NCBI GenBank assembly: GCA_951406725.2
Contig: OX597815.1
Coordinates: 18,662,001 to 18,726,000 of the forward strand
Length of the DNA: 64,000 nt
Direction of reading: 5' to 3'
Origin: Octopus vulgaris
Taxonomy: Eukaryota
Both the position numbers and the translations under genes were made by a program. The notes under the pieces are model-generated. The model did not search any database and had not been told where the DNA came from. It was given only the letters and a program-made list of their open reading frames with translations. Positions 1 to 59,512 of the stretch are shown in pieces (the first letter of the stretch is position 1; the number at the start of each line of letters is the position of its first letter).

Positions 1-196
1 TAATTTTATAAAAAACATTTCAGTACCGGTTTCATTCATTCAATCTTTATCAACTGTAAGTATAGGGCACAATTAAATTTTGGAAAAATTAGAAGATATG
101 TACAGAATTTTTAAAAGAATATTTGCATAGTATTCGAATACAAGGGGCACTTTCCTTGTTTCTGCCTGTCTCTTTGTCTCTCTTGCTTACTCTTGT
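1..196 (-). mobile_element. Penelope-like terminal-repeat fragment (family P1) with a minimal hammerhead motif at 21-56
   Basis: The reverse complement aligns with 35061-35243. The minus strand reads cag-TTGATAA-agattgaatgaat-GAAA-ccgg-TA-ctg, a type I minimal hammerhead layout with a decayed stem II. Confidence 0.6.
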
Positions 197-369
197 GGGT
201 TCGTGGTCGTTTTAGATACTCACAAAATATGGGGGTTTATTTCACAGGTGATCTAAACGACTAGGTACGCTAGGTGATGTAACGGATTACTGATGCTCCA
301 AGGTTATAACCGAGATGTTTGCCGTGCCTTAACATTTATTGTCCTTATTAACAATAATTATATATATCA

Positions 370-810
370 GCTAAGAGAAGACGGGAGAGGTATGCAGTAA
401 TATATATCTCGAAGATCCTAGAAGGAATTGTGCCAATTTTTGGCATTGAAAGCTACACTAATGACAGAACGGGAATACACTGCATAGTGTCAAAGATCCC
501 AGCAATGCCATCATGCTTCAGGACCAGCTACTACAACAGCCTGGGTTTCAAGGGCCCACACCTTTTTAATATTCTCCCAAAGAGTCTGAAGAATTTGCTC
601 AAAGTAGATGTAGCGGTTTTTAAATCAAAGCTGGATCTCTTCCTGTCGAGAGTCCCAGATGAACCTACCTCACGGCAAGAGTTGCAAATGGGGGTAGCTA
701 TATCAAACTCCATCTTCACCAAGTGCCACATATTAGAGGAGGGTCTTAATAATAACAGTGTAGCACAAAACGACGGAGCATCAGCATGGCCGCAGCTCTG
801 AGCTAAAACG
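370..810 (+). pseudogene. CR1/L2-group LINE 3' end (C-terminal ORF2 remnant plus 3' tail)
   Basis: Translates RRRERYAVIYISKILEGIVP..., SLGFKGPHLFNILP...FKSKLDLFLSRVPDEP, typical of a CR1-type ORF2 C-terminus. It has a frameshift and ends in cagcatggccgcagctctgagctaaaac followed by (TA)n. Confidence 0.8.
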
Positions 811-812
811 AA

Positions 813-905
813 TATATATATATATATATATATATATATATATATATATATATATATATATATATATATATATATATATATATATATATATGTATATATA
901 TATAT
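813..905. repeat. (TA)n microsatellite
   Basis: Direct reading. Confidence 0.99.
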
Positions 906-1742
906 GCGAGCAGACGCTGAAGAGTTCCTGGTTTTGGGTATCAGGAATATCAGTTAATAATGATTTTCTTCAAGATATTCCTCTCTAAGGTTCATACATT
1001 CATTGCAGCAGTATTTCAGTTTTTCTAAGCCCAGTAAAAAAAACTCGGAAGGTTGGGCTCTTAACCAGGCCTTTCACCATACCTTAAAGGCATACCTTAA
1101 AGCTTTTAAACACCCTTTTGTATATTATGTTTTACTGGTTTAAGTTATTTGATGGCGTAATCGAATGCAGGATATTTATGATTCATACGTAACCTAATTA
1201 GATTGTTTCACTCAGAACAGCTTACGTATGTTGTTTAGTACTATTAGATTAATGAATTTAAAAAAAAAAAATGTGTAACTCTGGACTTCTCAGTTCATTT
1301 AATAAACATCGATTTTGACTTGACCAAGTGACAGACTTTATAATAAAATTAGCAGCTTCTAACGTCATATTTCCACCTTCTCTCTCTGTTGTGTCTTCTC
1401 TTCTTCATACATTCTTTCTCTTTCTCGTTAGCAAACAATCAATCATATTACATTGATGTTTATTTACAATTGGTTTAATATTTAATTTCTGACCACTCAT
1501 TCGCATTTCAATTTTATCACAGTCTTGATCTTTATAAAATTAATGATTTATTTGTTGTAAATATAAGAAATTTGATATTTGATTAATCATTTTTGACACT
1601 TGAATGTTTGTGTTAATCAAGACTATTCTCGTCACATGAATTAAAAATATAATTTTATTGTTCGTATACAAAAATTCTACGATTGTATCATAAAGTTTTA
1701 TCAACAAATACACAGCTCCACACAAATGTTTCCTGTCATGAA

Positions 1743-1979
1743 GGCGGCGAGCTGGCAGAAACGATAGCACGCCGGGCGAAATGCGTAGCCGTATTTCGTC
1801 TGCCGTTACGTTCTGAGTTCAAATTCCGCCGAGGTCAACTTTGCCTTTCATCCTTTCGGGGTCGATAAATTAAGTACCAGTTACGCACTGGGGTAGATAA
1901 TCGACTTAATCCATTTGTCTGCCCTTGTTTGTCCCCTCTGTGTTTAGCCCCTTGTGGGTAGTAAAGAAATAGGTATTTT
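1743..1979 (+). mobile_element. tRNA-derived SINE, family A (likely Meta/MESC-type central domain)
   Basis: GGCGGCGAGCTGGCAGAA A-box-like head, GAGTTCAAATTCC B box and central GCCTTTCATCCTTTCGGGGTCGATAAATTAAGTACC. At least 8 copies occur in the window. The domain name is from memory. Confidence 0.9.
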
Positions 1980-56500: not shown

Positions 56501-56999
56501 TTCGTCTCTTAATAACGTCCTCGCTATCGTTTGAAATCGCAAATAATTCTTCTTACCTCTTTAGAACTTCACATACAGAAATTGACCATATGCATTATAG
56601 ACATTCTGTGCGAGTTATTGGAGTTCCTTTGAACATACAGGTCGAAACATTTTTAGTAGGGACTAAACAATATAGATTCCTTCATAGTTTCGATAATGTT
56701 TTCAGAAGAAATACTTTCTAGTTGAAGACATTACAAATGCTAGATCCCACAATTCTAATGGATCCTGGTATAAATATTATGTATAGAACCCTGGCAAAAT
56801 ACTATCTTTAAGAAGACAGAATATTCTTGAGAGCAAGAAAATTCTTCCGTGCTAAAGCGATGTTTATCCTCTATAGTTACAACAAACAGGTGAGAATCAG
56901 TGGCAGTGAATTGGCAGTCTTCAGAATACATCCCGCTATGTTTCCGACTCTCTGTGTTCTGAGTTCAAATCCCAACTAGGATAAATTTCAGAGAAAGTT

Positions 57000-58500
57000 G
57001 AGGGGCACTGCATTTGTAAGAAATGCGAGCGGGATATTCGGTAGTATTTATACTGGCTCTTTGCACTGGGTGTCCTAATTTCTGTCTTGGCCGGCTTTGG
57101 TGATAGATTAATCGCTCGCTTGGTACAAAGTCACTACTTGATGTTCTGATCAGGCTTCCAGTTTAACAACACTTTTCTCTCTCCGTCCCGTCCATCTCGG
57201 AAGCCGTATGAAGATTCGTGGACACTTACAATCTTTGCAAGTTGCTTGATAATTTAAAGTTTGCAACATTTAACTTTTGGAATACCTTAGGACTAGACTC
57301 TCAAAAAATCTATTTTCCCACGCACTAGACGATGGTCAGTTCAGCTCTCTGCTCCTCTCATAGCCTAAACGCTAGAAACATCCTCCATATCACGTTTTCT
57401 GATCAGAATATAATCTATGAGATGCTAGTGCTTAGATCTTGGGTGCATCCAGGTGATTGTATATTTATTTTTCTGCTTAAACAGAGTGTTGGTGAGAACC
57501 AGATACTTTTCAATACAAAACATCTAAAGAGCTATTCCCTTTTTATTACATTTTCCAATCTCATGTCGACCTAAAACAGGCCATGAAACCTAGTCCTTTC
57601 CAACTTTTGTTTTGAAAACTCCCAGTATGACCAGCTTGTCAGAAATTGGTACTTACCTCCTCAATAATTGTGCTAGATCATCATAAAACTCTCCTACTGT
57701 TTCATCAGAATGGGACATTGTAGGTGCATAAATACTGACAATGGTAAGAAACTTATCTTTTGTCAGTTTAATACGGAATGACATGGTCCGTTCAGATATA
57801 CTAATTAGAATCTGTGCAATGGAGGATAATAATGTATTCTTGAGAGCAAACCCAACACCAGATTCTCTACGCTGACCTTCAGGTAGGCCTCTCCAAAAGA
57901 TAGTATATCCATAAGTAGGTTCAGTTACTTGATCCTCACCAGAGAGACGAGTTTCAGAGATGGCATTTATATCAAGGAAATGTTTCTTAAGCTCACATTC
58001 CATACTTGCAGTGTGTCTTTCTGGCCTCATGTTGAAATTATCAAGAAGTGTGCGCACATTCCAAAAGCCAAAATTCAAAGGATATTTAGTTTTACGTTTT
58101 TTTGAAGATTGCTGGACCACAGTGGCAGGATGACGACTGGGCTCAGCCTGTGATACACTAAGGGATCTGCTGAGCCAGACCTGTTCCCCTAATGTTACCA
58201 AGCCTTTTTTGCCATTTACTGAATCCGTTTGAGACATTTTAGAGTAAGTTACAAGTGCGTTTTTTGGTTTCTGCCAACCAACCAATTCAATGATTTTATT
58301 AGTATTGATAAAGCCAGGAACTTGCAAAATCCTAAAGTTTTATTTCGGAGATTTACTTCTACCAGGTAGATTACCAACCAGGTTTAAAGAGCTTCTACCT
58401 GACTATAAGGTAAGCTATCCCATTCCAGACACCAAACCGACCTTCAAACACTCTACAGGATGATCAAATATCACTCCGCTGACCGCCGCCGAGGCGTAGC
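57000..58500 (-). pseudogene. RTE/BovB-like LINE 5' part: 5' UTR, APE endonuclease and a small RT fragment
   Basis: FGFWNVRTLLD, AISETRL, ESGVGFA, SIYAPT, TWMHPRSKH*HLIDYIL, TDHRLV and a later SYGFRDGR; in-frame stops. Confidence 0.9.
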
Positions 58501-58524
58501 TCATTCATACATAGGAAAAAAAAA

Positions 58525-58665
58525 ACTAGCAGCCCGTAACTTAGTGGCTCGGCAAAAGAATGATTTAATAAGTACACGGCTTACAAAGAATCTGTTCTGG
58601 GGCCGATTTTTTTGACTAAAGGCAGTGTTCCAACATGGTCGCAGTCAAATGTATAACACAAATAT
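58525..58665 (+). mobile_element. SINE family B 3' fragment
   Basis: cccgtaacttagtggctcggcaaaaga...ttccaacatggtcgcagtcaaatg. Confidence 0.75.
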
Positions 58666-59236
58666 AAGAATATATAAACTGTCGTCTAAATTACATAAAA
58701 ACGGATATAACACACACATCTCATTTTGACAGATATACTTACCGAAATTCCATAAAAATATCTCGAAATACTAAAGAGTAAATTTATTCAATAAAATCGC
58801 TATAGTGGTTTTGACTTCTATTTCTAACTATATAATGGCTTTTACAACCCTCTTAATTATAATTGTGAGTTATTCATGATTATACACACTTTTTTTTATA
58901 TATGAATATATATCCATACTTACACACACATACACAGAGTAACATAGACACATACGTACACACATATATCATGAACACGACCTCTGTCTTAGAAGGGTTT
59001 CTATTTGTTACTCCTGTTGCTGGTTGCTGTTGGAAAGAATGCATAATACCTAGGGACTCAGATTTGACACAAGATATATTCTCCATACCCAGGACCCTAC
59101 ATATTCATTCGCTTGTAGAATGGTTATTGGTGAAACCTCTAAATGTCATGGTTACGGACGGTGTGACCAATGATTTTGACCACCGAAATGAAATAACACT
59201 ATACTGTGTATTTTTCCATTGTATTATAGTGTCAGA

Positions 59237-59512
59237 TTCTATTGTGCCTGGGGAGAGTCTTTTTTCTTTTTGTGCCTTATATTGTAACACACTTACCGCT
59301 AAAATTTCCATCTTTATTCTTATTTTTATTGTCCTAAACTTTTCGTTGCGTCTTGCAACCTTTTCAATAGTCTTGACTAAGACTATTGAAAAGGTTGCAA
59401 GACGCAATGAAAAGTTTAGGACAAAAAAAAGAAAAGAAGTGGAAATTTTACCGGTGAGTGTGTTAAATAATAAGGCACAAAAAGAAAACGACCCTCCCCA
59501 GACACAATAGAA
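59237..59512. repeat. About 275-bp palindrome (4-nt loop GACT at 59375-59378) made of two inverted hammerhead-bearing Penelope-like repeats (family P5)
   Basis: Arms at 59237-59374 and 59379-59512; each reads cta-TTGAAAA-g-gttgc(aagac)gcaa(c/t)-GAAA-ag-TT-tag. Confidence 0.85.

Follow-up and report, generated by a model that had tools for sequence, protein, structure and literature searches.

The closest described relatives of the sequences considered here are the minimal hammerhead ribozymes of Penelope-like elements (PLEs). As reported by Cervera and De la Peña 2014 (PMC4209133), the U3-A8 core pair occurs in PLE minimal hammerheads and was searched for with its own descriptor, giving ~1,300 motifs in S. 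mansoni against ~2,000 canonical ones, a share of 39%. UUGAUAA and UUGAAAA cores are listed there, and U3-A8 is found in S. mansoni families 3 and 4. It was also reported that minimal PLE hammerheads cut weakly and as multimers only, the construct assayed being Sm1 with a C3-G8 core, and that in D. virilis Penelope an intron ends at helix I (PMC4209133). Natural U3-A8 covariation and a U10.1·U11.1 mismatch were described by Perreault et al. 2011 (PMC3088659), while the hammerhead of an anole PLE cut only in the presence of the element protein and needed the 3-8 pair (PMC11167929). In the present analysis, a stretch of 64,000 nucleotides of Octopus vulgaris (contig OX597815.1, positions 18,662,001 to 18,726,000; hereafter the window) was examined, in which a sequence-only reading had pointed out five hammerhead-like motifs with a variant core.

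Judging from sequence comparison and predicted folds, the window motifs are very probably minimal type I hammerheads with a U3-A8 pair, located in the 3′ pseudo-long terminal repeats (pLTRs) of three PLE families (named A, B, and C). In the parent RNA, they would likely cut slowly as dimers, and the truncated copies in the window are likely inert.

Hammerhead Motifs in the Window

All five motifs were confirmed in position and strand, and each has a TTGA(A/T)AA core, GAAA, TH, and a 3-bp stem I, with the insert CCGG in three and AG in two. The motifs and the element fragments that contain them are as follows:

1..210, minus strand: pLTR fragment of a family A sister subfamily, extending ~48 bp past the window start, then (TA)n
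20..56, minus strand: minimal hammerhead; core UUGAUAA (U3 at 53), CCGG stem III, stem II degraded to 3 bp
35060..35277, plus strand: family A PLE 3′ pLTR fragment, within and then followed by microsatellites
35187..35223, plus strand: minimal hammerhead; stem I CAG/CUG, core 35190-35196, stem II 35197-35210, GAAA 35211-35214, CCGG, UA 35219-35220; predicted cut 35220/35221
41279..41667, plus strand: family C PLE 3′ fragment, ending in (ATCT)n
41561..41597, plus strand: minimal hammerhead; core 41564-41570, U10.1·U11.1 mismatch, GAAA 41585-41588, CCGG, UU 41593-41594
59237..59378, minus strand: inverted partial family B pLTR copy, left arm of an inverted duplication
59334..59370, minus strand: minimal hammerhead of family B; core UUGAAAA, G10.1-C11.1, insert AG where most of the family has AT
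59379..59574, plus strand: family B PLE 3′ pLTR fragment, other arm of the inverted duplication
59383..59419, plus strand: minimal hammerhead of family B; core 59386-59392, GAAA 59409-59412, AG, UU 59415-59416

The sister-subfamily fragment at 1..210 shares 82-85% identity with family A loci over ~260 bp, and its subfamily is 79-85% identical to the family of the 35187 motif. The fragment at 35060..35277 is young (96-99% identity to other family A copies) and the one at 41279..41667 is older (85-89% identity to other family C copies). Stem II is weak at 20-56 and in family C. A single inverted duplication holds the motifs at 59334-59370 and 59383-59419, one in each arm, and folds as one long hairpin (-178 kcal/mol for 59233-59520); therefore, the five motifs are all real but represent four insertions. 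With regard to stem III, AG was correctly read in the two family B copies of the window, but it is a minority state of that family, in which palindromic AT is found in 33/45 rows and AG in 9/45.

The motifs were compared with chance expectation by several descriptors. A first, strict descriptor gave a single match in the window, at 35187-35223. A relaxed structural descriptor, in which positions 3 and 8 were left open, returned three window motifs, every one of them U3-A8 with CCGG, and no canonical C3-G8 motif; the same descriptor gave no U3-A8 match in 40 block-wise dinucleotide shuffles of the window. The two AG motifs were not counted by it because a palindromic insert was demanded, and they were checked by eye and by family alignment instead. 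A plain CCGG pattern was observed three times in the window and never in 200 shuffles. Chance look-alikes in A/T-rich repeat DNA might be suspected, since the window is A/T-rich (GC ~0.35), the stems are short, and an Rfam scan of the window showed no hammerhead among the 150 of 165 matches listed, which were microsatellite and hairpin noise. This suspicion is refuted by the shuffles, by a genome-wide count of 8,683 against 25 in the control (see below), and by the fixed site of the motifs downstream of PLE open reading frames (ORFs), which leave it a negligible probability.

Parent Elements

The 2.8 Gb genome was searched for further copies, giving 1,466 (A), 2,514 (B), and 1,184 (C) first-look candidates, of which 40 were scored per search. 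Copies share the 3′ end and are 5′-truncated; many lie within microsatellites, and an inverted partial copy on the 5′ side is frequent. Long copies reach frames for reverse transcriptase (RT) and for a GIY-YIG endonuclease at the C-terminus, which bears out the minimal type I PLE hammerhead identity proposed from the window letters. In family A, long copies (L095-L098) extend into linker and GIY-YIG frames, and L097 has a Pfam GIY-YIG match of 1.2e-4. Family B is represented by L113, in which a 665-aa frame (384-2378) combines an RT with a GIY-YIG-like end, and by L112, whose Pfam GIY-YIG match is 1.7e-6; the family B pLTR lies downstream on the same strand in 14 of the 20 loci found by the B ORF end. 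Family C long copies (L091-L094 and L103) extend into RT and endonuclease frames, the endonuclease being assigned via its 46-50% identity to that of family A. The GIY-YIG Pfam matches exceed the cut-off for families A and B, RT is recognized by YVDD and RT-named homologues, and a CX4CxxC linker precedes the C-terminal endonuclease in the translations of all three families. By these translations, the family parents are PLEs with RT followed by a C-terminal GIY-YIG domain. Close relatives of the L113 protein are present in many marine records.

It had been proposed that the motifs belong to three families with unrelated flanks. This holds for family B, which is distant by protein comparison (28% RT identity to family C) and whose RT carries a long insertion after motif A despite the C-terminal endonuclease. 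On the other hand, families A and C are related at the protein level (46-62% identity for their RT and endonuclease pieces) and probably share one origin.

Of the 32 frames in the window, 21 were compared with Pfam, and neither RT nor GIY-YIG was detected; tblastn of seven PLE fragments gave no match in the window, and its copies are therefore without ORF. Two decayed frames, at 40956-41237 (+) and 378-668 (+), are 72% identical to each other and resemble the C-terminus of ORF2 of a long interspersed nuclear element (LINE); Pfam gave no match on them. Family C starts just after the former. The possibility that family C is the 3′ untranslated region (UTR) of this LINE-like remnant was rejected, because no family C locus shares the window sequence between 40040 and 41277.

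The 3/8 Core Pair within Families

After removal of two duplicates (family A) and one partial row (family C), U-A was found at positions 3/8 in 33/34 rows of family A, 43/45 of family B, and 33/35 of family C. The family consensus is neither CUGANGA nor unpaired, and the earlier interpretation of the double change as covariation is upheld: judged from these alignments, U3-A8 is a family state and not decay. The CCGG insert is present in 34/34 family A and 24/35 family C rows. Family B carries the extra base after A9 and the G10.1-C11.1 pair of the published consensus, with C11.1 in 32/45 rows, while positions 10.1/11.1 are mostly G·U or A-U in family A and U·U in family C.

Among copies, the core varies less than its neighbours (0.5 vs. 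1.5%, 1.3 vs. 8.0%, and 2.1 vs. 6.8%), a contrast that subfamily differences and, in family B, ragged 5′ junctions confound in part. Such within-family conservation is weak evidence because the families are young or clonal, and both points count against a functional interpretation of these figures. Across eight hand-picked U3-A8 family representatives, some of which are probably related, 23/24 stem I positions are Watson-Crick paired; when stem I partners were shuffled, a mean of 9.2 were paired and the observed level was reached in 1/20,000 shuffles. The 3-bp stem I was found in 22/30 pattern loci. As an alignment result, this covariation speaks for selection on the source elements but not on the inserted copies.

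A different explanation is that the motifs are hammerhead-derived but dead or dispensable, U3-A8 having arisen through drift towards A/T in one founder or two and having then been amplified with the elements. In keeping with this, A/T content is higher around U3-A8 loci (flank GC 0.23 and 0.32) than around C3-G8 loci (0.37; 29, 12, and 20 loci, respectively), G8 sits in a CpG where N7 is C, and families A and C probably have a single origin. However, stem I covaries across families and positions 10.1-11.1 covary in an A-U family (H2, described below), C-G, U-A, and A-U are each the majority state of some family, and the change from U-A to A-U takes two transversions. All points taken together, including those given below, drift appears an unlikely origin.

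Abundance of U3-A8 Hammerheads in the Genome

A comparison with single-mutant cores was proposed along with the motifs and has been carried out genome-wide. For GAAACCGGTH, i.e., with a CCGG stem III, the counts were 8,683 for U-A, 151 for C-G, 156 for U·G, and 255 for C·A, against 25, 20, 17, and 27, respectively, for reversed-pattern controls; the two single-mutant cores thus amount to ~2-3% of the U3-A8 count. The U·G matches listed were mostly single changes within U3-A8 families, and their frequency is similar to the variation of the core between copies (0.5-2.1%). Among the 100 C·A matches listed, one stemless repeat accounts for 27, a 359-bp tandem family for 11, and an older family that has C-G sisters for 8.

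The 57:1 ratio of U-A to C-G is confined to the CCGG class. A general descriptor, which demands the extra base and G10.1-C11.1, gave 8,214 C-G and 7,093 U-A matches on the forward strand, the reverse-strand counts being inflated by repeat listing of one site. If the lower control counts of 601 (C-G) and 1,777 (U-A) are taken as non-redundant, the U-A share is ~41%; the true share may approach half, because the general descriptor misses U11.1 copies. By these pattern counts, U3-A8 is abundant (order 10^4 sites) and neither dominant nor unusual in share. One part of the sequence-only reading, a large set missed by CUGANGA searches, is sustained with an order of 10^4 motifs, while the claim of a hidden new class is not: the U3-A8 PLE variant was published and searched for in 2014 (PMC4209133), and canonical cores are at least as abundant. 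CUGANGA-only searches would roughly halve hammerhead counts in octopus-type genomes.

The idea that U3-A8 dominates all hammerheads of this genome was rejected, as canonical cores are at least as common by the general descriptor. Many canonical C3-G8 minimal hammerhead families (L235-L264) were also observed, at ~7 sites/Mb in the first 10 Mb of C1. With regard to other pairs, a loose G3-C8 pattern gave 18,357 forward matches vs. 15,525 in the matching control and no clear family, and the bulk A3/G3-Y8 count of 177 was below its control of 848.

Families with Other 3/8 States

Outside the window, a 359-bp tandem, retrozyme-like hammerhead family gave 405 pattern matches (loci L204:4746-6764, L188, L219, and L229). 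Among the first 100 listed, 52 were U-A, 42 C-G, 6 C·A, and none U·G, the last figure being a further argument against drift. An unrooted tree of 47 of its 49 units (two were dropped), with three core columns masked, requires two 3/8 state changes; a single branch (99/96) sets the U-A units apart from the C-G units, and the C·A units cluster in a small group of their own (92/82). All three subfamilies have copies in tandem, the C·A subfamily in part. A second tandem family of ~361 bp was observed at C1:8134351-8135463, with a UUGAAAA core, a 4-bp G-C stem II, and a CGCG insert.

In addition, two old PLE-linked families, also outside the window, have the cores AUGAAUA and AUGACUA (A3-U8), a CCGG stem III, and paired stems. 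They were spotted by recurrence in the A3/G3-Y8 listing and then examined separately (seeds L292-L311; loci L312-L341, e.g., L312 ~1530-1570, and L342-L371). In the family termed H1, A-U is present in 18/24 motif-covering loci (6/30 were dropped) found by similarity over 381 bp, and pieces of PLE RT or endonuclease lie upstream in five loci. In H2, A-U is present in 28/30 loci, most of which were retrieved because they resemble the motif itself, and GIY-YIG pieces lie upstream in L305, L351, and L354. In 75% and 81% of cells the named stem pairs are kept, while sliding them gives at most 51% and 30%; this control speaks for the named structure. For L303, the dimer predicted to be lowest in energy is that of the hammerhead, which is not the case for L317.

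A natural A3-U8 hammerhead was not found in the literature searched, which covered few subscription papers and gives a weak negative. As far as sequence comparison can tell, the new elements here are these two A3-U8 PLE families and the three-state 359-bp family. Tentatively, and with more doubt than confidence, we suggest that PLE hammerheads of this genome passed through C-G, U-A, and A-U states, with an amplified unpaired C·A intermediate in one tandem family, and that the A3-U8 families may represent, for the first time, natural hammerheads carrying a purine at position 3. If true, they would offer a natural series for an active site crossing an unpaired state and for whether cutting matters for PLE spread. 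More generally, with families of all four natural states (C-G, U-A, C·A, and A-U), the tertiary 3-8 pair and the role of PLE hammerheads can be tested on sequences that were already amplified in evolution.

Folding and Proposed Role

Cutting is predicted to occur as pairs only. The monomer hammerhead fold is predicted to be unfavourable (+2.9 kcal/mol in family A and +10.0 in family C), whereas the dimer fold of family A is favourable (-14.5 kcal/mol). Where a transcript is tandem or has the form pLTR-ORF-pLTR, two copies would pair via the palindromic stem III (ACCGGU or AAUU), and this pairing would complete two cores, each cutting after H17, perhaps helped by the element protein. Most likely, the motifs would serve to process tandem PLE transcripts, slowly and perhaps with assistance from protein. 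The 3-8 Watson-Crick pair would be under selection in the source elements, where it could drift among C-G, U-A, and A-U, and the inserted copies would be passive products of amplification.

Several observations weigh against such a functional hammerhead. In families B and C, U17 makes the palindrome longer, and the dimers predicted to be lowest in energy (-15.6 and -17.5 kcal/mol) pair core adenosines, while the hammerhead dimer scores -5.4 and -0.3 and that of the window AG copy +1.8; these predicted misfolded dimers also favour the drift explanation. Family B copies begin a few bases upstream of the core and not at the predicted cut site. The 3-8 pair is not absolutely required for spread, since the unpaired C3·A8 subfamily of the 359-bp family was amplified, partly in tandem, which again fits drift. 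The anole PLE hammerhead was dispensable for insertion in vitro, where its mutants still insert, and no RNA ends were reported at the cut site (PMC11167929), as drift in a dispensable motif would also allow. With regard to the parent elements, Pfam support for RT is weak (RVT_1 E 0.008, below the cut-off), and 12/13 fragments had no RT or GIY-YIG match in one Pfam run.

It could also be considered that the fold is kept for a non-cutting job, e.g., as a binding site of the element protein or through a link to splicing at the pLTR. The cleavage of the anole PLE hammerhead depends on protein and has no effect on insertion (PMC11167929), and in family A a T-rich tract and AG ending at the 5′ arm of stem I recall the intron end of D. 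virilis Penelope. Against this, the conserved positions are exactly those of the catalytic core, and four contig sets covering 35060-35275 showed no joint, a result that says nothing about a donor outside that stretch; we regard a non-cutting job as very improbable. Contig sets of this kind cover family A but do not reveal RNA ends, strand, or level. The T-rich tract itself is seen in the window at 35150-35189, where it ends in TTACAG exactly at the family A stem I 5′ arm and is 3′ splice-site-like.

Other Features of the Window

At 19712-20122 (-), a frame with C2H2 zinc-finger Pfam matches is probably a host zinc-finger exon. A 235-bp dispersed repeat, similar to short interspersed nuclear elements, has at least six copies in the window that are 90-95% identical:

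1743-1979: 235-bp repeat copy
14505-14743: 235-bp repeat copy
37071-37296: 235-bp repeat copy
38751-38982: 235-bp repeat copy
46498-46730: 235-bp repeat copy
53355-53589: 235-bp repeat copy

Comparison with Known Systems

A literature search on octopus, hammerhead, and Penelope brought up only Craig et al. 2021 (PMC8557442). Among the PLE types, the octopus families differ from Naiad in that their endonuclease is C-terminal and not N-terminal and a hammerhead is present. The C-terminal GIY-YIG and CX2-5CxxC linker of families A, B, and C, their microsatellite targets, and their inverted 5′ copies are shared with the Neptune/Nematis PLEs as these appear in Craig et al. 2021 (PMC8557442); this naming rests on the motif and not on a reference phylogeny, and family B is distant, with an RT insertion.

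The window motifs are also unlike non-LTR retrozymes, as their copies are solitary or inverted, their families bear ORFs, and no short non-coding tandem units are seen. By contrast, the 359-bp family resembles in size and layout the 350-390 bp mussel units of Cervera and De la Peña 2020 (PMC7229834), from which it differs in its three 3/8 states; it lies outside the window.

In Perreault et al. 2011 (PMC3088659), U3-A8 covariation is described and so is a U10.1·U11.1 mismatch like that of family C, while the core-variant section of that paper makes no tie to PLEs and no mention of A3-U8.

The closest system is the U3-A8 PLE subtype of Cervera and De la Peña 2014 (PMC4209133). The octopus-type genome is absent from the portions of its species table and alignment that could be compared, and A3-U8 is absent from the alignment rows examined. 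Families A and C differ from that subtype in their 4-nt CCGG insert, often without the extra base after A9 and G10.1-C11.1. Shared with it are type I topology, a tiny palindromic stem III, a site in the pLTR, mostly solitary truncated copies, inverted pairs, UUGAUAA/UUGAAAA cores (including UUGAAAA in a PLE), and a similar U3-A8 share. The U3-A8 PLE class is already published, and the octopus motifs add a genome to the known list.

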